From Antedon mediterranea (Eukaryota > Animalia > Echinodermata), in assembly GCF_964355755.1 (NCBI RefSeq), contig NC_092673.1:10292001-10356000 (forward strand): 64,000 nt of DNA, in the 5' to 3' direction. A program made the translations under genes and the position numbers. Numbering within the stretch: the stretch's first letter is position 1; each line of letters begins with the position of its first letter. Below are positions 37,401 through 64,000 of the stretch, piece by piece. Below the pieces are notes generated by a model that made no database searches, was not told the DNA's origin, and worked only from the letters and a program-made list of their open reading frames with translations.

Positions 37401-38839
37401 TGACACCGGTACCTACCGACATTGTCATACCCAAACTATAATTTAATTATTTAAAACAAAATATTGAATTACAAATATATGTATGTTGCAGAGGATTTAG
37501 ATGAATTACAATACAAATATTTATGTTTTACCTACTACACTATACTCTGTAAATTATGTTATTGTCATGTGGTAGACCTTAAAAATTGAATATTTATTGT
37601 ATGTTAGGCCTATTTTATATTTTATTAATACTGTATTAGTTTAATATTACTATTAATTTATATTATAGAGTAGGCCTACTAGTTTGTACATGTTTTTACC
37701 CAAAAAAAATGAATAAATAATTTGTTATTCAATCTAATTGCTTGTTTGTTCATCAATAACAAAACAATTGTAAGCAAGTATATAACAGTTCTTGTTAGCC
37801 GGTTATTTCAGGTCATATTATTAATATTAGCTAGGCCCGACGCGCCCGATCACAACGTCACTAAGTGACTTTCCGCCCCTGGAACAATCGCTCGCTAATA
37901 GGGCTAGGCCTCGGACTCGTATAAAAGCTATTATAATAGTTATGATAAATATTCCTCAACTAAAATGTATACTGTGATAAATAAACAAGTAATAATATAC
38001 GTTGTATTGGAATGTATTTATTTATATGAATTCTTATACGCGGACAATTATAAACATCGCTTATATCGTTCGCTATAAATAAATTCATAAACACGATGAC
38101 GATGTGTTTACAAAATGGCGGTTTCGCTAGTTTTCGATGGAACAAATAGTGGTACCTTTAGTTTGAATAGTCGGAGCTGCATCCCAACCACCGAATTTTG
38201 TATCTTAATATCGTATTCTGTAGATTATTAATTTTTCTAACAGGGATTTTAAATTCAGGACTGTTCAATTTTTCTAAATATTTTATTTTAACGATTTTCT
38301 AGGGTACAATTTCGGAAAAAAGACATTGGTTGATTTTGCCGTTAAATTACAGATTATCGTTTTGTTCAAATACATTTAATTTTACACGACAATATATTAA
38401 AACCATTTATGAATTTATTTCACTAACAATATTTTTCCGATAATCAGCTAAATTTACAAATATTGTGTTTTTCCAACACCCTAAAATTTAGCAATTTTGA
38501 ACTAAATTAGAAAAGTAGGGCGCCCTCTCCGAGTCGAAATTTGACACGATTTGTCGACTGGCTGTCCCACTGAACTAAAATTGCTATTGTTGTGGTTTTT
38601 GTTTAATATAAATGTTCTTAATAAACAGAAATAAATCAAACAACAATATAATTTAATATAATTCCGTTAAAAGGGAAATTTAGACAGCCTATAAAACAGG
38701 GAAGTCAGAACTCGCGTCGCTCGCAATGCTCGGGAACTTTCTATTTATAGCCAATCGAAAAAAGCTCCGGCTAACTTAAACAATGAAAACGGCTCTCGGA
38801 ACACTTAATGTCCCATTTTCGCTGTTTGACGTGGATGTG
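34409..38839. mobile_element. Non-autonomous Chapaev-like DNA transposon (4431 bp) inserted in the polymerase gene
   Basis: CACA...TGTG termini and 4-bp TSD CCTC (34405-34408 and 38840-38843). Empty site GTGAGCCTCCTGTAC in copy 2 (~51455-51469). AT-rich interior with no convincing ORF. Confidence 0.85.
36461..38572. mobile_element. Nested non-autonomous TIR element (2112 bp), superfamily unassigned
   Basis: TIRs CAGTGGGAAAGCCA / TGGCTGTCCCACTG (13 of 14 match), shared subterminal AAATCGTGT..TCGACT, and 4-bp TSD AACT on both sides. Confidence 0.75.
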
Positions 38840-39889
38840 CCTCCTGTACTTCTTGGCGCAAGAAATTGGATCGTCACCTCTGCGCATGATGCATTCTCCG
38901 TCCATTTCGTCTTCGACGTACGACGTGAATTTCACTTTCCTCGTCTTTAACGACAGCCTGTTTCCCTCCGGATCTCTGCCGTAGAGGTACAACTTTCCGT
39001 TTATATTGGAATACTTGACACGTGTCAGATACACGAACATTGCCTTTTGATCGGACAAAATTCCGAAGTCTGGAACTTCGACAGACTGTTTTTTCTTTTT
39101 GTATTTCTTTTTCTCCAAAGTCGATGCGAGTTCGTGTTGACCGGTTGCTTTTAGAGACTCGACGAAAGCTTTGTAACCGGACTCGTCTTGATGCTTCCAA
39201 ACGTTGTTGAGGAAAAAGTAAACGTTTCTCTCTCTGTCACCGTCGAGGAGGAAATTTGCGTATTCGGGTTCGTAAATTCTTCTGACGACCATTTGTTTGA
39301 CGGTGGCCTCCAGATTTATCGTTTCAGCGAACCGGTTGATGCGTTTCAGAAGAACGTTCCTCTCTCGCAATCGTTTCTTGTATGTTTGATCGATTTCGTA
39401 GTGCGAAAGACGGACCATCGCCGACTTGAAGGAAGAAAAAGGATGATCTTTCTCGAACGGCGTGTTCAAAGTTGTTTTCGCTCCTTTTCTCAAAGCGGCA
39501 ACAAGATCGTGGTGGCCGGCGCATTTAAGAGAATCCACGAAAGCTCCGTGAGCGTGCAATTTCGGATACCTTCGAATGTCGTCGATGAGATAATACGCCA
39601 TTCGATTCTCTTTAACCCCTTTCTCTCTGTCCATACACAGTACAAAGTTCTCGAAATCCCGCGAGTATATTTCTCTGACGACCAATGCTTCGAGTACCGC
39701 CGACAGGATCATGGACGTGGCGAGGAGTTTGCGATGTTTCGTCAGCAACGGTTCGCCTTCAAAGTAACTTTCTTCCATTCCTTCAGCACAGAGGAGACAA
39801 GGTTATGTCGATGTTGAAAGCCACGAATGAAAATAAAGAAAATTATATATTATATACCAAAACATGATAAAAAAAAATTATAATATGTC

Positions 39890-42208
39890 AGATATTTTGA
39901 GGGTTGTAAATGTCAGGCCTAAACAAGTGGACCTTTTTTAAAATCAGAAAAAAAGTTGCATGGCATTATTTTTCATTGATTGATCATTCATTTCATATAT
40001 ATAGACTATTATCAGCTCCTCAGTCATCTACTGGTTTGTGGCGTAACGGGTAATGCGCAGGTTTTAGTGATTTCAATAGTGGGTTCGAACTTCTAGGGAT
40101 ATTTTTTTTCTTTTTTTTTTTATTTGAAAATAAATATTGTTTTTGAAAGTGAGATATTTTTATGGTTTTAAATGTCAAGCCTAACCAAGTGGAAATTTTT
40201 TTAAATCAGAAACAAAGTTGCATAACATCATTTTACATTGATAGATCATTCATTTCATATAAATAGACTATTATCAGCTCTTCACTCATCTACTGCTTTG
40301 TGGCGTAACCGGTAATGCTCAGGTTTGAGTTCTCTCAGTAGTGGGTTCGAACCTCTAGGAATATTTTTTTCTTTTTTTTTTTGTTTGAAAATAAATATTG
40401 TTTTTGAAAGTGAGATATTTTTATGGTTTTAAATGTCAAACCTAACCAAGTGCACCTTTTTTTAACTCAGAAACAAAGTTGCATGGCATTATTTTTCATT
40501 GATTGATCATTCATTTCATATAAATAGACTATTATCAGCTCTTCACTCATCTACTGGTTTGTGGCGTAACGGATAATGCTCAGGTTTGAGTGTTCTCAGT
40601 AGTGGGTTCGAACCTCTAGGGATTTTTTTTTTTTAAATTGAAAATAAATATTTTTTTTGAAAGTGAGATATTTTGAGGGTTGTAAATATCAGACCTAAAC
40701 AAGTGGACCTTTTTTAAAATCAGAAACAAAGTTGCATGGCATTATTTTTCATTGATTGATCATTCATTTCATATAAATAGAGTATTATCAGCTCTTCAGT
40801 CATCTACTGGTTTGTGGCGTAACGGGTAATACTCAAGTTTGAGTGCTCTCACTAGTGGGTTCGAACCTCTACGGATATTTTGTTTCTTTTTTTTTTGTTT
40901 TAATTTAAAATAAATATTGTTTTTAAAAGTGAGATATTTTGAGGGTTGTAAATGTCAAGCCAAACCAAGTGGACCTTTTTTTAAATCAGAAACAAAGTTG
41001 CATAACATCATTTTACATTGATGGATCATTCATTTCATATAAATAGACTATTATCAGCTCTTCACTCATCTACTGGTTTGTGGCGTAACCGGTAGTGCTC
41101 AGGTTTGAGTTCTCGCAGTAGTGGGTTCGAACCTCTACGAATATTTTTTTTCTTTCTTTTTTTTTAATTGAAAATAAATATTGTTTTTGAAAGTGAGATA
41201 TTTTTATGGTTTTAAATGTCAAGCCTAACCAAGTGGACCTTTTTTTACATCAGAAACAAAGTTGCCTAACATAATTTTACATTGATGGATCATTTATTCC
41301 ATATAAATAGACTATTATCAGCTCTTCACTCATCTACTGGTTTGTGGCGTAACCGGTAGTGCTCAGGTTTGAGTTCTCGCAGTAGTGGGTTCGAACCTCT
41401 ACGAATATTTTTTTTTTTTTTTGTTTGAAAATAAATATTGTTTTTGAAAGTGAGATATTTTGAGGGTTGCAACTGTCAGGCCTAAACAAGTGAACATTTT
41501 TTGAAAACAGAAACAAAGTTGCATGGCATTATTTTTCATTGATTGATCATCCATTTCATATAAATAGACTATTATCAGCTCTTCAGTCATATACTGGTTT
41601 GCGGCGTAACGGGTAATGCTCAGGTTTGAGTGATTTCAATAGTGGGTTCGAACTTCTAGGGATATTTTTTTTCTTTTTTTTTTTATTTGAAAATAAATAT
41701 TGTTTTTGAAAGTGAGATATTTTTATGGTTTTAAATGTCAAGCCTAACCAAGTGGACCTTTTTTAAAATCAGAAACAAAGTTGCATAACATCATTTTACA
41801 TTGATGGATCATTCATTCCATATAATAGACTATTATCAGCTCTTCACTTATCTACTGGTTTGTGGTGTAACCGGTAGTGCTCAGGTTTGAGTTCTCGCAG
41901 TAGTGGGTTCGAACCTCTACGAATATTTTTTTTCTTTCCTTTTTTTTAATTGAAAATAAATATTGTTTTTGAAAGTGAGATATTTTGAGTGTTGTAAATG
42001 TCAGGCCTAAACAAGTGGACCTTTTTTAAAATCAGAAACAAAGTTGCATGGCATTATTTTTCATTGATTGATCATTCATTTCATATAAATAGACTATTTT
42101 CAGCCCTTCACTCATCTGCTGGTTTGTGGCGTAACGGATAATGCTCAGGTTTGAGTGCTCTCAGTAGTGGGTTCGAACCTCTAGGGATTTTTTTTTTTAA
42201 ATTGAAAA
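39890..42208 (+). repeat. ~260-bp tRNA-derived satellite, spacer of about 9 monomers between the two composite copies
   Basis: Same monomer. The first part matches 52510-54200 and the last part matches 17600-18290 in diagnostic variants. Confidence 0.95.
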
Positions 42209-45200
42209 TTAATATTATATACAGTACAGTACTTTAAATATACAGTATATTATTATACTTTCAGGTATGTTCCAGGACTAATACCTTCAGAGAAGAGAAT
42301 GAGAGAACGCCAGAAGGAACTGCTTTGCGGGTTGAAATCAAAAAATGAGCTACTGTTGTTTAATTCCAGTCGGCACGAAGGTCTCAGTTTGAAAGAGGTA
42401 GCTGTGATTCACATACCAGATATTAAGGCTTTGGTTTTTAATTACCTTGATGAGTACCGCCAGTAAGTTTATGATTTTATCTTCTCATTTCTGTACACAG
42501 ATTTTGTATGTTCCTGTCAAAAAAGAATAACAATGTTATTATATTTTACAGGCAAAATAAACTTAAAATATACAACGGCAATGAGATATGGCTGAAGTTT
42601 GGCGGAGATCATGGTGGTGAGAGTTTTAAGGCAGAAATACAAATTGTAAGTGTTGCTGATTCGAATGCAGTCAGAAATGTGGTTGTAGTATTGATGTTCC
42701 ATGCAAAGGACAGCGTCTATAACTTGTCGCAAACATTACCAAGAGTGACGGAGCAAGTTATGGGACTGAATGGTCTACAGTGGAGGTAGTTATGTTGTTT
42801 CATTTATCATGGATAAAATGCTATGTATTACAACAGAGTAACAAATACACTTATCTTTATCTATAAATGTGGATTTTTTTTTCTTTCACAGAGAGTATAA
42901 TCTGCGAATGTTTTGTTTTGGTGACTATGATTTTCTAACCAAAATCTACGGAATCTACGGACCAAACTGTAAGTAGTAAAAAAACATAATATAAAAAAAC
43001 AATACATGTTTTTCTAACAAACAAAAAATAGAATGTGAAATAATATTAACAGTAAATTATATTTGTTTTAGGCCGGTATTGTTGCCTATTTTGTAAAAAA
43101 TCCAAAGAGGAACAGCAAACAAAGTCTATTAATGGAGAGTGTAGGACACTGAGGTCATTGGCTGAAAACTTAAAGGCATTTGAGGAACATGGAGGGAAAC
43201 AGGAAATGTCCAAGAATGTATCACTTAGTGTAATATGGGAGCCTATGATTGATATTGAAATTGAGCCAGTAAGTAATTTTTATCTTGTACTCTAAATACC
43301 AATTAAATAATCTTAAATGTCGTAAGTATTTTTTTATAATTATCTTTACAGGTGTCCGTCCCTACCCTCCATATCTCTTTAGGGATATTCAAAAAACTGT
43401 ATGAGATGCTGGAAAGCGAATGGATGTTGCTATATTGATGGAAAGAAAAAATCATACAGAAGAAGATGATTATGATGATGATCAAGCAAAATCAAAGTTT
43501 GATAAGTTAGTGAAGGCAGTGGCTATGAAGCAAGAAGGTATAATTTATTTATTCTCTCCTTTCGTTTTTATTTGTTGTCTTTCTTTGCTTTTTATATTTG
43601 TTTTGTCTTCTTTGTATTGTATATGGCAGAAAATTCAATAAATAAATAAAAATAAATTAAATTGTTTTTAATTCCAGAATTGGCAAGAGAAAAAGATCAA
43701 CTTTTACTACAAATTGAGAAAATAGAAGACGATATCCCTTTATTGTATTTAAAAAATCAAAGTGGGGATGCTAAGGCAAAAATGTCTAAACAATTGCATG
43801 AACTAGTAAAGCTTCAAGATGAGTTGACAGAAACAGTACGTCAATATTTCATTCATAATTATATTGTTTGTTTTTACTTGTTACTTACCCTAAAAATCGA
43901 TGCCTTAGAACCTCACATGGTTATTCTGTACCTATGAAAGCAAACATAATTACCTGCATAAGTATTTTTCTATAGGAAAGGCAAATGGACGTACAACTGA
44001 GGTTTGGGACTGGTCCAATAGTAGCATCTATTGACCAGACACTCCAGTATCATGGTATTAAACGACAGCCATTTCATGGGAAATCTTTTAATGGTAATCA
44101 TGTGCACAAGGCACTAAAGGTATGCACATTAACTGTATGTAGAATTATGTATTCTAATTCTAATACATAATAGTAGTAGGCCTCTTTATATACATGATTC
44201 TTATTTACATTACTACTACTATTACAATACTGTATTATAATTTTTTTTAAATAAAAGTCTGACGTCATAGATGATCTATGCAAGAACATTTCTAGAGTGG
44301 TCAGTATAGAGGCAGATCTCTTTTCAATTAGTAAGGGACAACTGATAATGGCGAAGGCAGCAGAGATTGAAGTAAAATACACAAACTTACTCTCTAAATA
44401 TTCAGCAGTACACAACAGTATCAACCATTGCCGGGTGTTAACAACCGATGACATTCAATCAATTGGTATGATTTTTCTTTATTTCAAACCACTATAGATG
44501 TATCAACTAGATTTGTTTACAAGTTGTAAAATTTTGGAACAAGAACAAAAGTAATCAATTATATTTAAAATAATTTGCGTTTATATTTATACAGATGAAA
44601 AAATAATGGCTTTTATGGACCACTTTCGCCAATACAATGAGAGAATATCACCTAAGCTCCATTTACTTGAGGATCATGTGCTGCCATCAATTAAGAAGTA
44701 GAGAGTTGGGTTAGGACTGCTAGGAGAGCAGGGAGGAGAGTCCATACATGCCTCAATAAACAGAAGGAAACGGTCATTTTGGGGTATGCGTAATGAAAAT
44801 TCAAGAACGACGTCTATTATGAAAGCGCATACCATGTCCACAGTCCCTGAAATATTCAAGGAGGTCGAACACCCAAAAAGCCGAAAGCAGCTGAAATTTA
44901 AATAAAATAGTAGGCAAAAATTAGTGAAAATCTCAGATAAAAACAGTAACCTTATTATATTGTCTATACTATATTAATAATATACCTACTACATAATTGT
45001 CTAACTAGGCTAGGCCTGGAGGTCTATTATCTTAGTTAGTAGGCTATAATAATTGTAATAATATGGTTTATGACTAAAAGGCCTATCTATAACATGTTTT
45101 TATTATTATTGCATAAAAATAACAATAATAACATTATGTTAATATTTATACAAAGTCTCTTTATTGATCTTGAACTCTGTATTTACATTGCTGCTGGATT

Positions 45201-45737
45201 TGCCCTATGTTTAGGCCTAGACATGTGATATAGAGTGCTAGGCCGAAATACTAACCACGTGGATTATATACCAATTTTCAGCTTCATTAAAAAAAAAATG
45301 GGACATAACACCAGCGTGATTTTTTTTCTAACAAATATAAATAGTATATAGTTATTATATTTGTTTGCATTTACTTCTTAAAAAATTAGGTTTTGATTTT
45401 ATATGCGTGCAAAATTACACAAAAAAACGATCCTCAAAAACTGTTAAATATCTAAAAACTTACTCTCGAAATCATTGGTTTACTAGACTGTCTTAAAATG
45501 GCCGTTTCGTTTAAAAGAGATCGTCACATGGTTCTACCATACCTTATCTTCAACTAAATATGAATTATTCATGAGAAAAACAATTTGAAGGCTTCTCATT
45601 CGTTGATTAAAGATTACGGAAATAATGTTTTGAAAAACACATCACTTCCGGTTACTATGCACGCTTCGCTGAGCAGATATTGAAGGTAGCAACCGATAGA
45701 GGGCGCATAACTTTTTTTTCCTGGTGAATTGAATGTG
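42209..45737 (+). mobile_element. Chapaev-type transposon, right half, copy 2 (no nested insertions)
   Basis: Near-identical to copy 1 once the insertions are removed. Terminus ...GAATTGAATGTG at 45737. Confidence 0.7.
42265..44905 (+). pseudogene. Spliced Chapaev-type DDE transposase, copy 2 (5'-truncated; TGG>TAG at ~44699)
   Basis: Same exons and motifs as copy 1. The last exon reads AAGAAGTAG where copy 1 reads AAGAAGTGG. Confidence 0.75.
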
Positions 45738-46442
45738 TTGTCGGCAGCTGGTGGAACTGAGAGGCGGCATGACGGAACAGGAGGCGACGTTCTGGTACAC
45801 GTACATCAACTCGGATCCGAGGATCTGCAAAGCTCTCTCCTCGAAGCCGTCCGATCCCGTTTCCTTGTTGGATCGGTTCCGGACGTGCTCGGCGAACGGT
45901 TCACGAACCGGCTGAGGAACAACCTGAACCCGATTCCGGAGAAGAGAAAGTTTTACGTCGATGACGTCGTCTACAAAGTCGATCAGAGGACCAGAGTCGA
46001 GTCGTTTGAAAGTTTGGCGGTGGTGTTTTCCACTAAAAACCTTGTTCACTTACTCTACAGAGAAGAGGGCATCGTGGTGGGAGACTTGAAGGTTCGACGG
46101 TTACAGAACGAAAAAGGACAAGCGGCGAAAACCGCCTTCGTCGATCACGTGGAGCTCATGGTCGACGCTCCCGATCTGCTGATGTCGTTCCTCACATCGG
46201 CGCTCGATCTGCTGTCGTTATTTGCAGAAACGGTCGTGTTTGCCACGTACAACGACCGGGAACGTCAGTCTCTGACCTCCATGTTTTCGGAACATCAACG
46301 CACCTCCAACGGAGACGTGCTGGTGAAGGTAGACAACAGCATCCGGAGGATCCAGGTTCTGAAAAAAGGTGTGAAAAACCACCCCGATTGCAACAGACGG
46401 CGAGGAAAAATACGATCCGTGCCATCTTTCAGGAAGTGTTAA
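45738..46442 (+). pseudogene. Orphan virus-like ORF, copy 2
   Basis: Duplicate of 28673-29377. Confidence 0.45.
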
Positions 46443-46506
46443 AACCGGAGGTGCGCCCGATTTCGCCCATACACTCGCCCCGGAAAGTAAAGGGCCCGGA
46501 ACAATC

Positions 46507-47274
46507 ATGACGTACACAACCGTTCAATCCAGTTGCAACAGAGCGTCGATGAACTTCTTCCTGGTGAACGTGGTGTCTTCGCAAAACATCGCGTATCGAT
46601 ATCCGTACGACACGCGCGAGACGGCGCAATCCATCCACATGAGGGGCACGAAATTGCAAGACGACATGATAGAATTTCAATCGCCTCTGAAAAGAGGATC
46701 GACCGCGCTGTATTTCGTTTCCACAGGATCGACGAACATCACGACGAGGGGTAACTTCAACGTGAGAACAAAAACTTCGCTCAACTACCAACTGCAACAG
46801 GCGATAACTTAGAGAAAATACAAGAGCGTACCTATGCACATTTCGACAAACAACTTGAACCATGCAGGTAGGATGTACGGCGTGCTGGACGATCCGTCTG
46901 ACGTAGTCGAACGACTTAAGCTTTTGGAATCTTTGACGGTCGACAGCAACGATCTGTTTCCGTCGGTCAAGTTCACCATCCCGTACCATGTGGACGGACG
47001 AGCGAGAAAGTTCCAGTTGTTTTCTCCTTCGCTTTGCTGCAACACTCAGTTTCAGACGGTCGCTTCTCTCAAGCAAACCGGTCGCACGTTCCTCGACATG
47101 ATATTAAGGCACGTCGACAAATTCGATTCAGAACTGTCCCGAAAGTGCATTGCAGAGGAGCTGGATTGTGGCGAACCGTTGAACGATCGAACACTGCTGG
47201 AAATAAGTCCGTCGAACCGTCCGATCTGCTGCAAAAGGTCCGGTTGCAAACGCAAACGGTACGTCACAAAGTGA
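46507..47274 (+). pseudogene. TBP-like gene, copy 2 (premature TAG at 46810-46812)
   Basis: ORFs 46507-46812 and 46834-47274 are in frame. The stop replaces the Trp codon of copy 1. Confidence 0.6.
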
Positions 47275-48046
47275 AAAACTTTTTGTTTTTTTTTGTTTTG
47301 TCTGATTCTCCCGATGAGTTCTTACCTGTAAAAAACATTAAGATCAAGTATTTGGACTTTAGAAACTCTTCTTTGTACATGAGAAGACGACCGATCAAGG
47401 CATTTCAGAACTTTCAGAACGTTGGAAATGTTGCTGAACCTGTCGAGGTCGTGGACGAAGAAGAGTCCGAAGAGAAAAAAAAAAGAAAGATTGTTTTACA
47501 AGTAATAACGGACTAAGGAATCATGCCGAAAAAGCTGGCGATTCTTTCCCGACGGACAAAATCGACTCGAAATAGACAGGGGCAAAAAAAAAAACCATTT
47601 TAGAAAACCAACTATAACTGATTAAATAGTAACATTTTACAGTATATTAATACAGAAATAGACTTGGAAGAAAAGAATAATATTTACAAAATTCACAGAA
47701 AAGGAGAAAAGAAAGTGGAAAAAAAACAACACAAGAATGAGCACAAACATATACATCGAAATGCCGGTCTTCCACGTGGAAAGGGTTCTGAAAGTGCTAC
47801 GCCTTAAAAAAAGCAACACAGCGGCAACGACGGCGATGCGGATGAAAAAAACAAAAAAGACTTATGCGAAGTGATCGACAAAATAGAGAGATTGATAGAT
47901 TGCAAAGTGAAAATACTTTATCTTCTAAATTTAAGAAAATGATGGTCGTTTGAAATAAAAGGAAATTGAAATTTATATACAGTTTTTTAGTTTTTTTTTT
48001 GTTTTTTTTGTTGTTTTTGTTGTTATGTTTCACAAGAATCTTTCTT

Positions 48047-49240
48047 ATGGACTTGTTCAAAGAGAGACCGGTGTTGAAGTTGGGATTGCCTCAACCTGCC
48101 GTGCAGGTCAGGTGGTCAAAGATAATGACAGTCGACCCTAGACATTTCAAGTCGGACGACTACGACGACTACGACGACTACGACGACGACGGTGGCGGTG
48201 ACGAGGGCAACGATTACGGAAGGCGTTATCTGACCGGTCGTCTCTGGTTGACTAGAATCGAAGATTACACAGACTACACGACGCTTTCCCGAACTCTACA
48301 GTCTCTGGACGATTGGAGCGTGTTTGTGAGAAGCGGCAACCCCTCTCCAACGTTCCAGTGGTACTTCGACGGAAGGCGTTACGGATCCGACAACCCTTAC
48401 TTCGAGCTTCTGATGAGAATTGAGGCATCTGTGTCTGTCGTACAACAGATCGCTACCGTTGTGTCCGAAGAACGTCGCTTGCGCAGTCGAAACCTGCCTC
48501 GACAATTTGGCCGAGACGGAAGTTGGCGTAGGCAGAAGCGGCGTGCATTTGGACCCGCCTCCGATGTTCGTCAGGCACGACAGACGACAGATCGGATGGC
48601 TTAACGCAGACTTCTTCTCTGCCCTTTTAACCCTGGAAACCTCGCAACGACTGATGGTAGGTCTGGCCGATAGATCTTCCCGTCTTGTTTTCGAAGGATC
48701 GCAAAAGAAGGAAAGCATCCTGAATTTCGAGTTGGCGGAAGTGGAATTCTTCGAATTCGTCGAGGACGTCGTGGAAGAAGCAACGAACCCGTTGAGAGAC
48801 TGGTGGGCGTACGGAAATATTTCAATTCCGTCTCGGCCAAATTCGTCCGTCCTCTGAGGCTACTCACCGAGGTCAAAGAAAGACACACCGCTTTCATGAC
48901 GGACTCGGACGTGTTCCTGCCAAACGTTTGGAAACGGTTGAGAGCGACCGGGACCACGTTGCCTTCTTGCATAACCGAATCGACCGTGTTGCACGAAATG
49001 GACAGGAAATGTAAGGAAAAGGTGATTTCGCTTTTTCTAGGAAAACACCTAGAGCCTGTCGAAGACGATCTCGCCGTAGACGAAAACAAGATAAGAAGGG
49101 AGAGGTCGAAACGATGCATGAACGATGAGATCGACGAACGACCACCAAAATCTCTCGATTCGCCGTTTGTTTCGGGGAATCTACTGCTCGGCGTAAAAGA
49201 TCTGGACGTGACCGTGATTTGCGGATACGCAATACTTTGA
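48047..49240 (+). pseudogene. Orphan virus-like gene, copy 2, frameshifted
   Basis: ORFs 47966-48604, 48420-48857 and 48803-49240. One extra DDY repeat unit relative to copy 1. Confidence 0.5.
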
Positions 49241-49396
49241 CAAATTGACAAACAAAAGAATACAAGAAAAACTGTTAAACAATATTTTTGGTTTTTGTGT
49301 TTTTATTTCCTTCAACCATTCCTTTATTTCTTTTCTTTCAAAAGTAGACTTAAAACTATTTTTTATTTATTTTTTATTTCTTGATTATTTTACGCT

Positions 49397-52300
49397 TCAT
49401 CTTTTGCTGTGTAGTTCCATGCCTTTCCGCAGAATCGGTGTGCGTCGCAACACAAAGCGTTTGTACATCTTAAGATGAATAATCTCCTCTCCCCGTTTTC
49501 GAGATCTACGCTTCGAAAGACCGGTTCGTTTTTTTCTAACCTGTCTCTTCTTCGGCGGTCGACACCTTCACCATGGAACAGCAACTGCCACTGAACACAT
49601 TCCACCCTCCGCAGAGCTGCAGCTCCTTCCGGGGCAGTTGCGTCGGAATCTTTTCCAAAGTATCTTTGATCTCCTTCAACCGATGCAATATGCTCGTTCG
49701 GCAGTCCCCTGCTTCCGCGTTCCAAACGATTACGCTCAAAACGTTGCTTTTGTCGAGTTCGCAAAATTGTTTCAGCTCTCGGATCAAGTGCTCAACTTCC
49801 ACGGTCGGATGGATGCACGAATGCAACAGCGGATGATAGGAAACGCCTCCGTGTTTCAGGTGGTAAGGCGTCTGTCTGTAGCATCCGAGGGCGGCGCAAC
49901 TCTTTTTGAATCTGTGAGAGTTCGTCTCGTTTTTGCCCTTTCGAACAACGTCCCGGACCTCGATCGCTTCGTCGTCCTTCAGTTCGTTGACGACTCGACA
50001 AAATTCTTTTACGCAACGGTCGGCCGCCGTATTGCTATCTCCGATCCTCAGGGCTATGTCGATCATGTTCTGTTCCCGTCGAGACGCGAATCTTTCGACG
50101 CCGGGCCTCGTCATCTCTGTGGTGCTCACCCTCCCGTCTGCATGGAGACACGCATACCTTTTCTTCTTGTCCGTCAGCAGCAAGCCGCAAAGCGTCTCCC
50201 TGTGTTTGAACCTTTGAAAGCTTCCTTCGCCCAAGACTCGGGCGAATTGCTCTTCCAGCTCCTGTCTCCCGCCTGGAACTATGTCCAAAAACAACGAGTC
50301 GGTGTCGCCGTACAGAACCCGAGCACCGTTTTCTTCCGCGCAATTTTTTAGCGCATTCAGTTGTTCCCTGCACTTTTCCGTCACGTGGTTGTAAAGGCTT
50401 TTCTTGCCAGACGTGCACAGACATCCGACGCTTGTTTGTACGCGGCGGAGTTCTGGGGAGTGATGTTTTTTTCTTCTCTAGCCGACACCAGTCTTTTCAT
50501 GACGGACGGAAGCAGACCTTCGCGTACTTCGGCGTCGACGAAAGAGCCGTCTTCGAGAGCCGTCGACTCGTCCACGTTTTTGTCGATGATGAACCTCGGA
50601 TAGCAAGACTGAAAGTCGTACAAGTCGACGTCTCTGTGAATGCCGGACACGGTGTCCAGCACCAGGCCTCCTCTGCACGTTTCGTCTTCGTTGACGCTTC
50701 CTTTGGGCTTCGGGTCCGCATTGCTCCTCGGAAACACCACACGCTGACGCTGCGCTTCTCTGCACAGCACCGACGAAAGGACACCGGTCGACGATCCGTT
50801 GGGGAACCTTCCCACTATTCTGGACAAGTTCGTCTCGATTTCGATCAATTTTTTCGCTTCCACCTCCGACACGTAGCGTTCCAGCACGCAAACGTCGTCG
50901 TCTAGCTTCTTCGCCGACAAGCTCGCCGCTAGCTCGTGACAAGATTCGTAACCGACGTAATCGTAGACGGAGTCGTTGTCGCCGCCCGCCGGCGACCGTA
51001 CGTGTTTTGAAGTGTCCAAGCACACGGGGAACCCGTCTACGGCAAGGGGTACCTCGCACAGCCAACATCTGGCGACGATGCTGTCCTTGACCCGACCACC
51101 GTGATACACGAACACGTCGGCAGATTCGATCGACTTTGCGATTTCCGACAGCGTGTCGCATTTTCGCCGTGCAGTCTCTTTCCGTCGGACAGCATTGCCG
51201 AAATTATTCGACCGTTCACGTCCCACCTGAAAACTACGCACAACACCGACAGTCGCACCGGGTGAACGTTCTGTCGTTCCAAGTGGATCTGCTCGTCGTA
51301 CGTCAAGCCTTCGACGTTGCCGTCTTTGTCTTCGGAGTAACTGTGCCAAGCGCATCCGTGAACCCCGACCGCGCACTGAGCGTCCAGGTCGCCCACGGAC
51401 GAGGGGAAGTTGCCGAAGAGGTTGTCTACCTTGATGCCGTTCCTTTCGTCGGTCGTGAGCCTCCTGTACTTCTTGGCGCAAGAAATTGGATCGTCACCTC
51501 TGCGCATGATGCATTCTCCGTCCGTTTCGTCTTCGACGTACGACGTGAATTTCACTTTCCTCGTCTTCAACGACAGCCTGTTTCCCTCCGGATCTCTGCC
51601 GTAGAGGTACAACTTTCCGTTTATCTTGGAATACTTGACACGTGTCAGATACACGAACATTGCCTTTTGATCGGACAAAATTTCGAAGTCTGGAACTTCG
51701 ACAGACTGTTTTTTCTTTTTGTATTTCTTTTTCTCCAAAGTCGATGCGAGTTCGTGTTGACCGGTTGCTTTTAGAGACTCGACGAAAGCTTTGTAACCGG
51801 ACTCGTCTTGATGCTTCCAAACGTTGTTGAGGAAAAAGTAAACGTTTCTCTCTCTGTCACCGTCGAGGAGGAAATTTGCGTATTCGGGTTCGTAAATTCT
51901 TCTGACGACCATTTGTTTGACGGTGGCCTCCAGATTTATCGTTTCAGCGAACCGGTTGATGCGTTTCAGAAGAACGTTCCTCTCTCGCAATCGTTTCTTG
52001 TATGTTTGATCGATTTCGTAGTGCGAAAGACGGACCATCGCCGACTTGAAGGAAGAAAAAGGATGATCTTTCTCGAACGGCGTGTTCAAAGTTGTTTTCG
52101 CTCCTTTTCTCAAAGCGGCAACAAGATCGTGGTGGCCGGCGCATTTAAGAGAATCCACGAAAGCTCCGTGAGCGTGCAATTTCGGATACCTTCGAATGTC
52201 GTCGATGAGATAATACGCCATTCGATTCTCTTTAACCCCTTTCTCTCTGTCCATACACAGTACAAAGTTCTCGAAATCCCGCGAGTATATTTCTCTGACG

Positions 52301-52398
52301 ACCAATGCTTCGAGTACCGCCGACAGGATCATGGACGTGGCGAGGAGTTTGCGATGTTTCGTCAGCAACGGTTCGCCTTCAAAGTAACTTTCTTCCAT
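49397..52398 (-). pseudogene. Tandem-CARD / family-B DNA polymerase fusion, copy 2 (~1000 aa reconstructed)
   Basis: ORF 51037-52398 reads from the CARD-like repeats into the polymerase N-terminal/exonuclease-fold region without a stop. 7-bp deletion at ~51157, shared motif-B frameshift at ~50427, 2-bp deletion at ~49545. Confidence 0.87.
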
Positions 52399-52509
52399 TC
52401 CTTCAGCACAGAGGAGACAAGGTTATGTCGATGTTGAAAGCCACGAATGAAAATAAAGAAAATTATATATTATATACCAAAACATGATAAAAAAAAATTA
52501 TAATATGTC

Positions 52510-55500
52510 AGATATTTTGAGGGTTGTAAATGTCAGGCCTAAACAAGTGGACCTTTTTTAAAATCAGAAAAAAAGTTGCATGGCATTATTTTTCATTGAT
52601 TGATCATTCATTTCATATATATAGACTATTATCAGCTCCTCAGTCATCTACTGGTTTGTGGCGTAACGGGTAATGCGCAGGTTTTAGTGATTTCAATAGT
52701 GGGTTCGAACTTCTAGGGATATTTTTTTTCTTTTTTTTTTTATTTGAAAATAAATATTGTTTTTGAAAGTGAGATATTTTTATGGTTTTAAATGTCAAGC
52801 CTAACCAAGTGGAAATTTTTTTAAATCAGAAACAAAGTTGCATAACATCATTTTACATTGATAGATCATTCATTTCATATAAATAGACTATTATCAGCTC
52901 TTCACTCATCTACTGCTTTGTGGCGTAACCGGTAATGCTCAGGTTTGAGTTCTCTCAGTAGTGGGTTCGAACCTCTAGGAATATTTTTTTCTTTTTTTTT
53001 TGTTTGAAAATAAATATTGTTTTTGAAAGTGAGATATTTTTATGGTTTTAAATGTCAAACCTAACCAAGTGCACCTTTTTTTAACTCAGAAACAAAGTTG
53101 GATGGCATTATTTTTCATTGATTGATCATTCATTTCATATAAATAGACTATTATCAGCTCTTCACTCATCTACTGGTTTGTGGCGTAACGGATAATGCTC
53201 AGGTTTGAGTGTTCTCAGTAGTGGGTTCGAACCTCTAGGGATTTTTTTTTTTTAAATTGAAAATAAATATTTTTTTTGAAAGTGAGATATTTTGAGGGTT
53301 GTAAATATCAGACCTAAACAAGTGGACCTTTTTTAAAATCAGAAACAAAGTTGCATGGCATTATTTTTCATTGATTGATCATTCATTTCATATAAATAGA
53401 GTATTATCAGCCCTTCAGTCATCTACTGGTTTGTGGCGTAACGGGTAATACTCAAGTTTGAGTGCTCTCACTGGTGGGTTCGAACCTCTACGGATATTTT
53501 GTTTCTTTTTTTTTTGTTTTAATTTAAAATAAATATTGTTTTTAAAAGTGAGATATTTTGAGGGTTGTAAATGTCAAGCCAAACCAAGTGGACCTTTTTT
53601 TAAATCAGAAACAAAGTTGCATAACATCATTTTACATTGATGGATCATTCATTTCATATAAATAGACTATTATCAGCTCTTCACTCATCTACTGGTTTGT
53701 GGCGTAACCGGTAGTGCTCAGGTTTGAGTTCTCGCAGTAGTGGGTTCGAACCTCTACGAATATTTTTTTTCTTTCTTTTTTTTTAATTGAAAATAAATAT
53801 TGTTTTTGAAAGTGAGATATTTTTATGGTTTTAAATGTCAAGCCTAACCAAGTGGACCTTTTTTTACATCAGAAACAAAGTTGCCTAACATAATTTTACA
53901 TTGATGGATCATTTATTCCATATAAATAGACTATTATCAGCTCTTCACTCATCTACTGGTTTGTGGCGTAACCGGTAGTGCTCAGGTTTGAGTTCTCGCA
54001 GTAGTGGGTTCGAACCTCTACGAATATTTTTTTTTTTTTTGTTTGAAAATAAATATTGTTTTTGAAAGTGAGATATTTTGAGGGTTGCAACTGTCAGGCC
54101 TAAACAAGTGAACATTTTTTGAAAACAGAAACAAAGTTGCATGGCATTATTTTTCATTGATTGATCATCCATTTCATATAAATAGACTATTATCAGCTCT
54201 TCAGTCATAATTATATTGGTTTGCGGCGTAACGGGTAATGCTCAGGTTTGAGTGATTTCAATAGTGGGTTCGAACCTCTAGGGATATTTTTTTTCTTTCT
54301 TTTTTTTAAATTGAAAATAAATATTGTTTTTGAAAGTGAGATATTTTGAGGGTTGTAAATGTCAAGCCAAACCAAGTGGACCTTTTTTTAAATCAGAAAC
54401 AAAGTTGCATAACATCATTTTACATTGATGGATCATTAATTTCATATAAATAGACTATTATCAGCTCTTCACTCATCTACTGGTTTGTGGCGTAACCGGT
54501 AGTGCTCAGGTTTGAGTTCTCGCAGTAGTGGGTTCGAACCTCTACAAATATTTTTTTTCTTTTTTTTTTTTAATTGAAAATAAATATTGTTTTTGAAAGT
54601 GAGATATTTTGAGGGTTGTAAATATCAGGCCTAAACAAGTGGACCTTTTTTAAAATCAGGAACAAAGTTGCATGGCATTATTTTTATTGATTGATCATTC
54701 ATTTCATATAAATAGAGTATTATCAGCTCTTCAGTCATCTACTGGTTTGAGGCGTAACGGGTAATGCTCAAGTTTGAGTGCTCTAGGGATATTGCTTTTT
54801 TATTGTTTGAAAATAAATATTGTTTTTGAAAGTGAGATTTTGTTATGGTTTTAAATGTCAAGCCTAGCCAAGTGGACCTTTTTTAAAATCAGAAACAAAG
54901 TTGTATAACATCATTTTACATTGATGGATCATCCATTTCATATAAATAGACTATTATCAGCTCTTCACTCATCTACTGGTTTGTGGCGTAACCGGTAGTG
55001 CTCAGGTTTGAGTTCTCGCAGTAGTGGGTTCGAACATCTACGAATATTTTTATTCTTTCTTTTTTTTTAATTGAAAATAAATATTGTTTTTGAAAGTGAG
55101 ATATTTTGAGTGTTGTAAATGTCAAGCTTAAACAAGTGGACCTTTTTTAAAATCAGAAACAAAGTTGCATGGCATTATTTTTCATTGATTGATCATTCAT
55201 TTCATATAAATAGACTATTATCAGCTCCTCAGTCATCTACTGGTTTGTGGCGTAACGAGTAATGCTCAGGTTTGAGTGCTCTCAATAGTGGGTTCGAACC
55301 TATACGGGTATTTTTTTTCTTTTTTTTTTAATTGAAAATAAATATTGTTTTTGAAAGTGAGATATTTTGTGGGTTGCAACTGTCAGGCCTAAACAAGAGA
55401 ACCTTTTTTTAAATCAGAAACAAAGTTGCATGGCATTATTTTTCATTGATTGATCATCCATTTCATATAAATAGACTATTATCAGCTCTTCAGTCATATA

Positions 55501-58500
55501 CTGGTTTGCGGCGTAACGGGTAATGCTCAGGTTTGCGTGATTTCAATAGTGGGTTCGAACTTCTAGGGACATATTTTTTCTTTTTTTTTTATTTGAAAAT
55601 AAATATTGTTTTTGAAAGTGAGATATTTTTATGGTTTTAAATGTCAAGCCTAACCAAGTGGACCTTTTTTAAAATCAGAAACAAAGTTGCATAACATCAT
55701 TTTACATTGATGGATCATTCATTTCATATAAATAGACTATTATGAGCTCTTCACTCATCTACTGGTTTGTGGCGTAACCGGTAGTGCTCAGGTTTGAGTT
55801 CTCGCAGTAGTGGGTTCGAACCTCTACGAATATTTTTTTCTTTTTTTTTTTTTTTGAAAATAAATATTGTTTTTGAAAGTGAGATATTTTTATGGTTTTA
55901 AATGTCAAGCCTAACCAAGTGGACCTTTTTTTAAATCAGAAAAAAAGTTGCATAACATCATTTTACATTGATGGATCATTTATTTCATATAAATAGACTA
56001 TTATCAGCTCTTCACTCATCTACTGGTTTGTGGCGTAACCGGTAGTGCTCAGGTTTGAGTTCTCGCAGTAGTGGGTTCAAACCTCTACGAATATTTTTTT
56101 TCTTTCTTTTTTTTTAATTGAAAATAAATATTGTTTTTGAAAGTGAGGTATTTTGAGTGTTGTAAATGTCAGGCCTAAACAAGTGGACCTTTTTTTAAAT
56201 CAGAAACAAAGTTGCATGGCATTGTTTTTCATTGATTGATCATTCATTTCATATAAATAGACTATTGTCAGCTCCTCAGTCATCTACTGGTTTTGTGGCG
56301 TAACCGGTAGTGCTCAGGTTTGAGTTCTCGCAGTAGTGGGTTCGAACCTCTACGAATATTTTTTTTCTTTCTTTTTTTTTAATTGAAAATAAATATTGTT
56401 TTTGAAAGTGAGGTATTTTGAGTGTTTTAAATGTCAGGCCTAAACAAGTGGACCTTTTTTTAAATCAGAAACAAAGTTGCATGGCATTGTTTTTCATTGA
56501 TTGATCATTCATTTCATATAAATAGACTATTATCAGCTCCTCAGTCATCTACTGGTTTTGTGGCGTAACCGGTAGTGCTCAGGTTTGAGTTCTCGCAGTA
56601 GTGGGTTCGAACCTCTACGAACATTTTTTTCTTTTTTTTTGGTTTGAAAATAAATATTTTTTTTGAAAGTGAGATATTTTGAGGGTTGTAAATATCAGGC
56701 CTAAACAAGTGGACCTTTTTTAAAATCAGAAACAAATTTGCATGGCATTATTTTTCATTGATTTATTATTTATTTCATATAAATAGACTATTATCAGCTC
56801 TTCAGTCATATACTGGTTTGCGGCGTAACGGGTAATGCTCAGGTTTGAGTGATTTCAAAATATTTTGAGTGTTGTAAATGTCAGGCCTAAACAAGTGGAC
56901 CTTTTTTTTAATCAGAAACAAAGTTGCATAACATCATTTTACATTGATGGATCATTCATTTCATATAAATAGACTATTATCAGCTCTTCACTCATCTACT
57001 GGTTTGTGGCGTAACCGGTAGTGCTCAGGTTTGAGTTCTCGCAGTAGTGGGTTCGAACCTCTACGAATATTTTTTTTCTTTTTTTTTTTAATTGAAAATA
57101 AATGTTGTTTTTGAAAGTGAGATATTTTTATGGTTTTAAATGTCAAGCCTAACCAAGTGGACCTTTTTTTACATCAGAAACAAAGTTGCCTAACATAATT
57201 TTACATTGATGGATCATTTATTCCATATAAATAGACTATTATCAGCTCCTCAGTCATCTACTGGTTTGTGGCGTAACGGGTAATGCTCAAGTTTGAGTGC
57301 TCTCACTAGTGGGTTCGAACCGCTACGGATATTTTGTTTCTTTTTTTTTTTTTAATTTAAAATAAATATTGTTTTTGAAAGTGAGATATTTTGAGGGTTG
57401 TAAATGTCAGGCCTAAACAAGTGAACCTTTTTTAAAATCAGAAACAAAGTTGCATGGCATTATTTTTCATTGATTGATCATTAATTTCATATAAATAGAC
57501 TATTATCAGCTCTTCAGTTATCTACTGGTTTGTGGCGTAACGGGGAATACCCAGGTTTGAGTGCTCTCATTAGCGGGTTCCAACCTCTAGGGATATTGCT
57601 TTTTTATTGTTTGAAAATAAATATTGTTTTTGAAAGTGAGATTTTTTTATGGTTTTAACTGTCAAGCCTAACCAAGTGGACCTTTTTTAAAATTAGAAAC
57701 CAAGTTGCATAACATCATTTTACATTGATGGATCATCCATTTCATATAAATAGACTATTATCAGCTATTCACTCATCTACTGGTTTGTGGCGTAACCGGT
57801 AGTGCTCAGGTTTGAGTTCTCGCAGTAGTGGGTTCGAACATCTTCGAATATTTTTATTCTTTCTTTTTTTTTAATTGAAAATAAATATTGTTTTTGAAAG
57901 TGAGATATTTTGAGTGTTGTAAATGTCAGGCCTAAACAAGTGGACCTTTTTTAAAATCAGAAACAAAGTTGCATGGCATTATTTTTCATTGATTGAATAT
58001 TTATTTCATATAAATAGACTATTATCAGCTCCTCAGTCATCTACTGGTTTGTGGCGTAACGGATAATGCTCAGGTTTGAGTGCTCTCAGTAGTGGGTTCG
58101 AACCTCTAGGGATTTTTTTTCTTTTTTTTTTAATTGAAAATAAATATTGTTTTTGAAAGTGAGATATTTTGAGGGTTGCAACTGTCAGGCCTAAACAAGT
58201 GAACCTTTTTTGAAATCAGAAACAAAGTTGCATGGCATTATTTTTCATTGATTGATCATCCATTTCATATAAAGAGACTATTATCAGCTCTTCAGTCATA
58301 TACTGGTTTGCGGCGTAACGGGTAATGCTCAGGTTTGAGTGATTTCTATAGTGGGTTCGAACTTCTATGGATATTTTTTTTCTTTTTTTTTTTATTTGAA
58401 AATAAATATTGTTTTTGAAAGTGAGATTTTTTTATGGTTTTAAATGTCAAGCCTAACCAAGTGGACCTTTTTTAAAATCAGAAACAAAGTTGCATAACAT

Positions 58501-59060
58501 CATTTTACATTGATGGATCATTCATTTCATATAAATAGACTATTATCAGCTCTTTACTCATCTACTGGTTTGTGGCGTAACCGGTAGTGCTCAGGTTTGA
58601 GTTCTCGTAGTAGTGGGTTCGAACATCTACGAATATTTTTATTCTTTCCTTTTTTTTAATTGAAAATAAATATTGTTTTTGAAAGTGAGATATTTTGAGT
58701 GTTGTAAATGTCAGGTCTAAACAAGTGGACCTTTTTTAAAATCAGAAACAAAGTTGCATGGCATTATTTTTTATTGATTGAATATTCATTTCATATAAAT
58801 AGACTATTATCAGCTCCTCAGTCATCTACTGGTTTGTGGCGTAACGGATAATGCTCAGGTTTGAGTGCTCTCAGTAGTGGGTTCGAACCTCTAGGGATTT
58901 TTTTTTTAAATTGAAAATAAATATTGTTTTTGAAAGTGAGATACTTTTAGGGTTGTAAATATCAGGCCTAAACAAGTGGACCTTTTTAAAAATCTGAAAC
59001 AAAGTTGCATGGCATTATTTTTCATTGATTGATCATTCTTTTCATATAAATAGACTATTA
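52510..59060 (+). repeat. ~260-bp tRNA-derived satellite, array 3 (about 25 monomers)
   Basis: Same monomer, with some internally deleted units (~54780, ~56860). Confidence 0.95.
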
Positions 59061-60783: not shown

Positions 60784-63150
60784 CTCTCTCTCGCTGATCT
60801 ATCTCTCTCTCGGTGATCTATCTCTCTCTCGCTGATCTATCTCTCTCTCGCTGATGTATCTCTCTCTCTCACTGATCTATCTCTCTCTCGCTGATCTATC
60901 TCTCTCTCTCTCGCTGATCTATCTCTCTCTCGCTGATCTATCTCTCTCTCGCTGATCTATCTCTCTCTCGCTGATCTATCTCTCTCTCGCTGATCTCTTT
61001 CTCTCTAGCTGATCTATCTCTCTCTCACTGATCTCTCTCTCTCTTTCTCTCTCTCTCTCTGTCTCTCTCTCTCTCTCCTCCGCTGATCTATCTCTCTCTC
61101 GCTGATCTATCTCTCTCTCGCTGATCTATCTCTCCCTCGCTGATCTATCTCTCTATCGCTGATCTATCTCTCTCTCTCGCTGATTTATCTCTCTCTCGCT
61201 GATCTATATCTCTCTCTCGCTGATCTATCTATCTCTCTCTCGCTGATCTATCTATCTATCTATCTCTCTCTCTGGCTGATCTATCTATCTCTCTCTGGCT
61301 GATCCATCTCTCTCTCGCTGATCTATCTATCTCTATCTCGCTGATCTATCTATCTCTCTCTCGCTGATCTATCTATCTCTCTCTCTCGCTGATCTATCTC
61401 TCTCTCTCTCTCGCTGATCTATCTCTCTCTCTCGCAGATCTATCTCTCTCTCGCTGATCTATCTCTCACTCGCTGATCTATCTATCTATCTATCTCTCTC
61501 TCTGGCTGATCCATCTCTCTCTCGCTGATCTATCTATCTCTATCTCGCTGATCTATCTATCTCTCTCTCGCTGATCTATCTATCTCTCTCTCTCGCTGAT
61601 CTATCTCTCTCTCTCTCTCGCTGATCTATCTCTCTCTCTCGCAGATCTATCTCTCTCTCTCGCTGATCTATCTCTCACTCGCTGATCTATCTCTCTCTCG
61701 CTGAACTATCTCTCTCTCTCGCTGATCTATCTCTCTCTCTCTCGCTGATCTATCTCTCTTTCGCTGATCTATCTCTCTCTCTCGCTGATCTATCTCTCTC
61801 TCGATGACCTATCTCTCTCTCTCGCTGATCTATCTCTCTCTCTCGCTGATCTATATCTCTCTTGCTGATATATCTCTCTCTCTCGCTGATCTATCTCTCT
61901 CGCTGATCTATCTCTCTCTCGCTGATCTATCTCTCTCTCGCTGATCTATCTCTCTCTCGCCGATCTATCTCTCTCTCGCTGCTCTATCTCTCTCTCTCTC
62001 GCTGATCTTTCTCTCTCTCGCTGATCTATATCTCTCTCGCTGATCTATCTCTCTCTCTCTCTCGCTGATCTATCTCTCTCTCGCTGATCTATCTCTCTCT
62101 CGCTGATCTATCTCTCCATCGCTGATCTCTTTCTCTATCACTGATCTATCTCTCTCTCTCGCTGATCTCTCTCTCTCTCTCTCTCGCTGATCTATCTCTC
62201 TCTCTCGCTGATCTATCTCTCTCTCGCTGATCTATCTCCCTCGCTGATCTATCTCTCTCTAGCTGATCTATCTCTCTCTCGCTGATCTATCTCTCTCTCG
62301 CTGATCTATCTCTCTCTCGCTGATCTATCTCTCTCTCTCGCTGATCTATCTCTCTCTCTCTCTCGCTGATCTATCTCTCTCTCTCGCTGATCTATCTCTC
62401 TCTCGCGCTGATCTATCTATCTATCTATCTCTCTCTCTCTCTCTCTCGCTGATCTATCTCTCTCTCTCGCTGATCTATCTCTCTCTCTCGCTGATCTATC
62501 TATCTCTCTCGCTGATCTATCTCTCTCTCTCGCTGATCTATCTCTCTCTCTCGCTGATCTATCTATCTCTCTCGCTGATCTATCTCTCTCTCTGTCGCTG
62601 ATCTATCTCTCTCTGTCGCTGATCTATCTCTTTCTGTCGCTGATCTATCTCTCTCAGTCGCTGATCTATCTCTCTCTCTCTCTCTCTCGCTGATCTATCT
62701 CTCTCGCTGATCTATCTCTCTCTCGCTGATCTATGTCTCTCTCGCTGATCTATCTCTCTCTCGCTGATCTATCTCTCTCGCTGATCTATCTCTCTCTCGC
62801 TGATCTATCTCTCTCTCTCTTTCGCTGATCTATCTCTCTCTCGCTGATCTATCTCTCTCTCGCTGATCTATCTCTCCATCGCTGATCTCTTTCTCTATCA
62901 CTGATCTATCTCTCTCTCTCGCTGATCTCTCTCTCTCTCTCTCGCTGATCTATCTCTCTCTCTCGCTGATCTATCTCTCTCTCGCTGATCTATCTCTCTC
63001 TCGCTGATCTATCTCTCTCTCTCGCTGATTTATCTCTCTATCGCTGATCTATCTCTCTCTCGCTGATCTATCTCTCTCTCGCTGATCTATCTCTCTTTCT
63101 CTTGATGATCTCTCTCTCTCTCGCTGATCTATCTCTCTCTCGCTGATCTA
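60784..63150. repeat. CT-rich compound mini/microsatellite, unit GCTGATCTAT(CT)nC, about 18-26 bp
   Basis: Directly visible. Confidence 0.97.
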
Positions 63151-64000
63151 ATAGCTTTAAAACGGATTTGGAGACGTTTTAGACCATTTTGTGCATTTCG
63201 ATGAAACTTGGTTACACAAAAACATGTGCATACAATAGCTTAATATCGTATTTGAGACGTTTTAGACCATTTTGAGCATTTCGATGAAACTTTTCACACA
63301 AAAACAACAAAGTGCACAAAATAGCTTCAAATCGCATTTGGAGACGTTTTAGACCATTTTGTGCATTTCGATGAAACTTTTCACACAAAACATAAAAGTG
63401 CACAAAATAGCTTCAAATCGCATTTGGAGACGTTTTAGACCATTTTGTGCATTTCGATGAAACTTGATTACACAAAAACATCACAAGTCCTTAAAATCAC
63501 ATTTGAAACCGTTTTAGAACATTTTGAGCATTTCGAAAAAATTGTTAACATAAAAACACGAAAGTGCTTAGAATAGCTTCAAAGCGGATTTGGAGACGTT
63601 TGAGGCCATTTTGTGCATTTCCTTAAAACTTTTCACACAAAAACATCAAAATGCATATAATAGCTTAATATCGTATTTGGAGACGTTTTAGACCTTTTTG
63701 TGCATTTCGATGAAACTTTTCACACAAAAACAACAAAGTGCATACAATAGCTTATTATCGTATTTGGAGACGTTTTAGACCATTTTGTGCATTTCGATGA
63801 AACTTTTCACACAAAAACATCAAAGTACAAAAAATAGCTTCAAATCGCATTTGGAGACGTTTTAGACCATTTTGTGCATTTCATTAAAACTTTTCACACA
63901 AAAACATCAAAATGCATATAATAGCTTAATATCGTATTTGGAGACGTTTTAGACCTTTTTGTGCATTTCGATGAAACTTTTCACACAAAACAACAAAGTG
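63151..64000. repeat. Third satellite, ~86-bp monomer (runs off the window)
   Basis: GGAGACGTTTTAGACCATTTTGTGCATTTCGATGAAACTTTTCACACAAAA recurs at about 63170, 63254, 63340, 63426 and onward. Confidence 0.92.

Follow-up and report, generated by a model that had tools for sequence, protein, structure and literature searches.

Two broken copies of a compact family B DNA polymerase, perhaps of a lineage of its own, in a probable virus-like island of Antedon mediterranea

The window analyzed here, a stretch of 64,000 nucleotides from the genome of Antedon mediterranea, contains a compact family B DNA polymerase (PolB) gene without introns, present in two broken copies in a probable virus-like island (Table 1). 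We favor, with a probability of roughly 55%, the reading that they belong to a proofreading-dead PolB lineage of their own and not to a captured Pol alpha. Both copies in the window are dead, and the interest lies in their intact relatives.

Table 1. Positions of the features in the window
Feature	Position	Strand	Remarks
Family B DNA polymerase pseudogene, copy 2	49390–51660	−	four pieces; 38–53% identity to the intact homolog P0001
Motif A, YDFQSCYP	50597–50620	−	catalytic Asp and steric-gate Tyr retained; conserved Leu replaced by Cys
Motif C, YGDTDS	50295–50312	−	intact in sequence
Cys-rich C-terminal tail (CC ... Cx4C), putative zinc site	49390–49600	−	common to P0001, P0150, and P0154 in the alignment
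Two tandem CARD-like repeats	51661–52398	−	same frame as the polymerase, in both copies
Distal part of polymerase copy 1	32326–34409	−	motif B frameshift, stop near 32660, frameshift near 32490
Copy 1, CARD-like repeats and polymerase start	38836–39778	−	
AT-rich 4.4-kb insertion, splits copy 1	34410–38835		CAC...GTG ends, CCTC duplication, transposon-like
Segmental duplication, first arm	25850–42161		second arm 42915–54784, about 98.5% identical
GC- and CpG-rich island, 6.8 kb	45738–52497		likely fragment of a longer element
Coding region without family match	45738–47274	+	several broken frames, cut at the island's left end; GC3 0.62–0.63
Coding region with acidic low-complexity run	48047–49240	+	several broken frames

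Copy 2 runs on the minus strand from an ATG at 51660 to a stop at 49390, and its reading frame is broken by frameshifts near 51157, 50430 (within motif B), and 49545. The presence of a family B polymerase at this place, as proposed in a sequence-only reading of the window, is confirmed by Pfam DNA_pol_B matches, above the cut-off in two of the copy 2 pieces, and by the location of motifs A and C. The description of the gene as intronless and compact also holds, because the intact homolog P0001 tiles the polymerase DNA with no intron-sized gaps. The motifs quoted in that reading are present, but they are spread over the four frameshifted pieces and do not lie in one open frame. Two of them, LFGNLPSS and VLCVVLRW, are real but come from copy 1 (about 34.2–34.4 kb); copy 2 reads LFGNFPSS and VLCVVFRW. 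The catalytic aspartates of motifs A and C were said to be retained, and both YDFQSCYP and YGDTDS were indeed found. The frameshift near 51157 is missing in copy 1 and in contigs of three sequencing runs. The Cys-rich tail consists of a single Cys cluster, a part in which the confidence of the P0001 model is low.

Upstream of the polymerase start, 246 codons continue in frame without a stop and hold both CARD-like repeats. The two repeats share 33% identity (E = 5e-16), and their match to the CARD families is weak (Pfam CARD E = 0.01, CARD_2 E = 0.086, both below the cut-off). The homologs P0001, P0147, and P0154 start at or near the position equivalent to 51660, and the contigs of runs X6 and X9 leave out 548 bp of the CARD-like part. 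Therefore, the fusion of the repeats with the polymerase may be a local event, or it may reflect a lost stop between two genes.

The second damaged polymerase copy (copy 1) is situated 17 kb upstream of copy 2. The arms of the duplication appear as two GC-rich islands, and the polymerase copies were duplicated together with their flanks. The differences between the two copies are spread evenly over the codon positions (7/6/7), which fits decay after duplication and is silent on the active element. The insertion that splits copy 1 is noncoding, is bounded by a 4-bp CCTC duplication, and resembles a non-autonomous DNA transposon, for which it is a candidate.

As a whole, the window is eukaryotic in character and AT-rich, with a GC content of about 0.32, and it contains a 261-bp satellite, a LINE, and five tRNA-Val genes. 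The satellite, with a unit of 261–264 bp in which a tRNA-like box can be recognized by eye, occupies 1–18300, 39890–42197, and 52510–59060, and the right end of the island adjoins it in both copies. The tRNA-Val(AAC) genes stand in tandem at 12800–14228 within the satellite field, at a spacing of about 286 bp. The LINE (18944–24286) has a zinc-knuckle ORF1, and its endonuclease and reverse transcriptase are split over two frames near 21465. About 118 copies of a 19-bp CT-rich unit form an array at 60784–63150, and a tandem repeat of 87 bp adjoins it (63150–64000). Rfam gave no matches in 42000–54000.

The coding parts of the island have a GC content of 0.46–0.54, a GC3 of 0.54–0.73, and a CpG o/e of 1.4–1.6, compared with a GC content of 0.31 and a CpG o/e of 0.58–0.65 in the flank, LINE, and satellite. 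The island genes are intronless and are separated by short A/T-rich spacers. The frames of the left plus-strand region gave no match in Pfam, PHROG, NCBIfam, PDB, or the Atlas, and family searches with those of the right one gave no credible match. Inside the latter region lies a perfect 18-bp inverted repeat (48504–48521 and 48826–48843), at which a contig of run X6 leaves out 311 bp, from 48503 to 48815.

Parts of the island occur in 11 sequencing runs from six studies and four organisms, none of which is recorded as RNA. Contigs from four of these runs were compared with the island; run X9 is thin (20 of 30 bins), and no host claim is based on it. In X5, the long island contigs have depths of 40–74 versus 2.6–4.8 for the flank contigs, where depth is not copy number and X5 may be RNA. 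The contigs of X5 and X6 run on into other DNA to the left of 45738 and to the right of about 52497; the window thus holds a fragment of something longer.

The viral or mobile origin suggested in the sequence-only reading is likely, in view of the foreign composition, the Anneissia japonica contigs described below, and the layout of the run contigs. In the visible 6.8 kb, neither a gene for a capsid, packaging ATPase, integrase, or transposase nor a terminal repeat was found; hence, the term virus is based here on the composition, the layout, the repeated copies, and the CARD-like gene. We consider the island likely to be a fragment of an unclassified DNA virus or virus-like element, probably one of crinoids or similar hosts. 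Among viral contigs, metagenome contigs, and prokaryote genomes, a search with short exact patterns, which miss distant relatives, gave no family member with flanks.

The homologs of the polymerase form a small group. P0001 has 738 amino acids and matches with E = 3.8e-58, the next best of 26 matches to the C-terminal piece being at 9.8e-7; it is about 46% identical to the window polymerase overall and keeps all catalytic motifs. A search of 1.84 billion representatives gave 25 matches, including P0146, P0147, P0150, and P0154. The P0146 cluster comprises five proteins, all from the feather star A. japonica, encoded on contigs of 1.0–128 kb and named "Pol delta-like" or "Pol II-like"; the nearest named homologs of the window polymerase are from this crinoid. 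P0001, P0150, and P0154/P0216 are encoded on contigs of 5.5, 39.8, and 8.8 kb, respectively, and P0220 is on the 128-kb A. japonica scaffold. P0154 and P0216 are distant members with FGHADS as motif C, a changed motif B, and a full open frame of 1048 amino acids; judged from these residues, they may be catalytically weak or dead.

The model of P0001, based on a 125-row alignment (mean pLDDT 73, pTM 0.74, reliable to about residue 560), displays a complete N-terminal, exonuclease-like, and polymerase fold. It compares almost equally well with B3, Pol alpha, PolII, RB69, delta, HSV, and pox enzymes (Z 18.3–20.7, 490–585 residues aligned, rmsd 4.2–5.7), and Foldseek agrees. The family has the features of RNA/DNA-primed PolBs, namely, motifs A, B, and C with their aspartates, motif B being whole in P0001 and frameshifted in the window. 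A protein-primed PolB of the Polinton/Maverick type was considered and rejected: PF00136 is matched, PF03175 is not, and the visible part contains no integrase or terminal repeat. The ESM Atlas yielded only generic PolB clusters for the polymerase and nothing for the plus-strand frame. The literature, covered largely outside subscription papers and at the level of titles and abstract openings, offered no description of the family, and the accessible part of bioRxiv 10.1101/2022.05.25.493380 holds nothing bearing on it. Apparently, this is an undescribed and unplaced PolB lineage.

The loss of the ExoI DxE pair, another claim of the sequence-only reading, is borne out by the alignment: the pair is absent in the window polymerase, P0001, P0147, and P0154, and P0150 retains the Asp only. 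The aspartates of motifs A and C and the steric-gate Tyr are kept in the window polymerase and P0001. The residue preceding this Tyr is Cys in the window, Tyr in P0001 and the crinoid proteins, Ala in P0150, and Met in P0154. In 284 other PolBs, a redundant and unbalanced sample, the same position is occupied by Leu (237), Met (41), or another residue (6, some of them pattern mis-hits), and never by Tyr, Cys, or Ala. Similarly, the motif B Tyr is replaced by Val or Ile in the window and in seven of nine family proteins, and by Phe in P0154 and P0216; in the same sample, this position is Tyr in 242, Phe in 31, and another residue in 3, with no match in 8 and no Val or Ile. Since the ExoI pair is lost and the motif A Leu and motif B Tyr are replaced, a low-fidelity enzyme is predicted. 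The intact family enzyme would be primer-dependent, devoid of proofreading, and error-prone.

The two replaced residues, matched by motif, are those that we take to be equivalent to Leu415 and Tyr567 of RB69 polymerase. Y567A has a mutator effect in RB69. According to the accessible text of PMC3792054, its catalytic parameters are retained, and that of PMC2475618 reports for L415F/G an increase in substitution errors of more than 10-fold and easier lesion bypass. The engineered exonuclease-minus RB69 variants are thus changed at the same two pocket positions that are changed naturally in the family, although the family has other residues there (Y/C/A and V/I) and such effects depend on the enzyme.

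The sequence-only reading had regarded the polymerase as a relative of Pol alpha captured from a host, and this view was not supported. Five trees were calculated, on the polymerase domain with 78, 43 (quick), 43 (careful), and 52 rows and on the full length with 40 rows, with no herpes, mirus, pox, baculo, nudi, nima, or Pol-epsilon sequences knowingly included. P0153 and P0148, which the motif pattern missed, were left out, and the careful tree also leaves out P0154, L001, L002, and seven "other" long rows. The Pol alpha clade (99–100) and the delta clade (97–100) exclude the family in all five trees. The family itself is monophyletic (99/95 for four rows in the careful tree, 97 for five rows in the full-length alignment); P0154 clusters with it in the full-length tree alone, in which long branches come together. 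L002, a giant-virus PolB whose branch (2.6–2.95) is as long as that of the family, falls inside alpha in each of the three trees that include it, despite its branch length. Therefore, the trees are able to detect a Pol alpha captured by a virus.

The alternative that the gene arose recently from the host POLA1, as a retrocopy (a possibility raised in the sequence-only reading itself) or a processed pseudogene, would agree with an intronless, exonuclease-dead gene in a eukaryotic genome. However, grouping of the family with animal Pol alphas (tick and sea cucumber) was rejected by the AU test (p = 0.0018), the base composition differs from that of the host DNA, and an intact homolog with all catalytic motifs exists at about 46% identity, so that this origin is extremely improbable. 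Crown alpha and recent retrocopy origins are out. The delta/NCLDV clade sampled does not contain the family either, as the careful and full-length trees show.

An old capture, in which Pol alpha or a stem relative was taken long ago and cut to its core while its signatures eroded, is an unlikely origin that nevertheless has several observations in its favor. GCL follows the motif B Tyr position in 23 of the 284 other PolBs, 19 of which are alphas by Pfam or name (4 unchecked). P0001 and P0147 have LSIR/LSLR in the ExoI strand, where two alphas have ISLK/VSVR, and GGLVL is found in 9 of 10 alphas. In hhalign, the alignment with alpha covers 485 columns and reaches the N-terminal and exonuclease parts as well. 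Both enzymes are exonuclease-dead and share the same structural start (P0001 residues 1–668 on alpha 341–1225), with a superposition of Z 19.4 and rmsd 4.2 over 566 aligned residues. A position of the family as sister to alpha was not rejected by the AU test (p = 0.213 and 0.252). The GCL, ExoI, and GGLVL patterns, together with this unrejected position, make a very old link to Pol alpha possible.

Conversely, the alpha-diagnostic residues are at background level in the window polymerase (2 of 33), P0001 (4 of 35), P0150 (1 of 31), and P0154 (3 of 36); eight unrelated controls have 1–4 of 33–37, and L002 has 8 of 36. Among the seven groups of the profile comparison, alpha is fifth in rank for the polymerase domain and fourth for the N-part, and none of them is matched by the tail. 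The structural scores equal those with archaeal, phage, and pox enzymes. The family has KKRY in place of the KKKY of alpha, and GCL is missing in P0150 and P0154. The Cys tail gave no profile match to the alpha tail (hhalign E = 0.38) or the delta tail, and the family has no Pfam match to the Pol alpha C-terminal PF08996 (CysA, CysB) or N-terminal PF12254. Of the motifs that had been aligned with alpha by eye, GCL and GGLVL are alpha-like, but most can be found in archaeal B3/B4/B6, PolII, or delta as well. B4 and PolII are equally compatible with GKLYLYGR, as are delta and B6 with GxxW; one B3 and one B6 have GGLVL, and GLLPS and KKRY are nearer to delta than to alpha.

L002:3053–5983 and L003:2888–6853 are from the same giant-virus contig, on which a delta-type PolB is accompanied by another PolB of 976 amino acids, in which no DxE was seen by eye. 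The latter, which falls inside alpha in the trees, seems to be a genuine case of a Pol alpha captured by a virus, unless the contig is misassembled. L083 and L084 are two distant PolBs from metagenome contigs. The former, without a firm place in the tree, is partial (L083:1590–2450); its exonuclease domain is seemingly almost all deleted, its motif B Tyr is replaced by Val, and a SWIM-finger frame adjoins it.

Another conceivable source is a prokaryotic PolB, of the bacterial PolII or the archaeal B3 type, that was carried into an animal-infecting element. PolII and B3 give the top sequence and profile scores, and the family stands beside PolII in the careful tree (97/94) and the full-length tree (84). 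However, resemblance to P0001 was the criterion for choosing the PolII and B3 sets, and scores are higher for compact proteins. Furthermore, the pairing becomes an open fork once other long rows are added, only 0–4 of 15–17 PolII-diagnostic residues are found, and the PolII insert before KKR is missing. We regard this origin as improbable.

Large eukaryotic DNA viruses mostly carry delta-like proofreading polymerases. In the accessible part of PMC7544198, the PolBs of eukaryotic viruses are assigned to delta-related groups and EukVir1, and no viral alpha group is named; that of PMC12198294 argues that alpha and zeta are harder to co-opt. The family might be a fast-evolving offshoot, perhaps a divergent paralog, of an unsampled eukaryotic viral PolB group (herpes-, pox-, baculo-, nima-, or mininucleovirus-like), although we find this quite unlikely. 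A position with the delta clade was not rejected (AU p = 0.136), and the island layout and CARD-like gene are presumably compatible with an animal DNA virus. The top viral structural match is the polymerase of Carcinus maenas virus 1 (CmV1; E = 2e-19, TM 0.57, 15% identity), and mininucleoviruses carry a second, strongly diverged PolB (accessible text of PMC6960288). On the other hand, the best viral structural matches are scattered over many families at 11–16% identity with similar E-values. According to the same text and its Table S1, the 827-residue CmV1 enzyme is the main polymerase and keeps its exonuclease motifs, and the mininucleovirus paralogs have just 216–297 residues and other motifs. 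On these grounds, and with 6.8 kb of the element visible, membership in the Mininucleoviridae appears improbable, the CmV1 main enzyme being of the proofreading type and the paralogs short with other motifs. The second PolB of these viruses thus provides a precedent for an accessory polymerase, not for membership.

Returning to the reading that we favor, a separate lineage that has lost proofreading, we propose that the germ line of a marine invertebrate was invaded by a DNA virus or virus-like element, and that the integrated element was duplicated together with host flanks and then decayed. In the active element, the polymerase would extend a primer provided by another protein and leave errors uncorrected. 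Its role may be that of an accessory enzyme working alongside another polymerase that proofreads, at slightly better than even odds, or that of the sole replicase, at slightly less than even odds. The CARD-like repeats could serve as decoys against host cell death or immune signaling. A more far-reaching idea, which we put forward as doubtful, is that echinoderms harbor an undescribed group of DNA viruses or self-replicating elements whose polymerase is a natural mutator, with proofreading lost, two pocket residues relaxed, and CARD decoys fused to it. This enzyme would descend from stem alpha or from a PolB branch otherwise lost, and the element would still be present at high copy or active in some individuals.

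If proofreading has been dropped and two fidelity residues have been changed, the family would constitute a natural test of error tolerance in a DNA replicon, and it is possibly useful as a source of a permissive enzyme. It also appears to mark an unrecognized virus or mobile element of crinoids, whose copies in A. japonica now carry host-gene labels, "Pol delta-like" and "Pol II-like".

The family can be compared with several known systems. The Mininucleoviridae (CmV1, PaV1, DhV1) share with it, according to the accessible part of PMC6960288, a compact PolB, aquatic invertebrate hosts, and a second divergent PolB; unlike the family, their main enzyme keeps ExoI–III, and no NCLDV core gene was seen in the 6.8-kb island. 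Delta and delta-like NCLDV PolBs have GLLPS, KKRY, and GxxW in the N-terminal domain in common with the family, whereas their proofreading motifs are kept. Pol alpha (POLA1) shares the family B fold, a dead exonuclease, GGLVL, a Cys-rich tail, and, with the crinoid-type members only, GCL in motif B. However, the family is about half as long, has KKRY and a tail unmatched to that of alpha, and has replaced the motif A Leu and motif B Tyr; it resembles Pol alpha in its lost proofreading, yet it groups outside crown alpha in all five trees and has the diagnostic residues at background level. Bacterial PolII and archaeal PolB3 are similar in their compact size and have the top raw similarity to the family. 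In contrast, their exonuclease is active and the link in the trees is unstable, and the CARD-like neighbor and animal hosts suggest a eukaryotic element.
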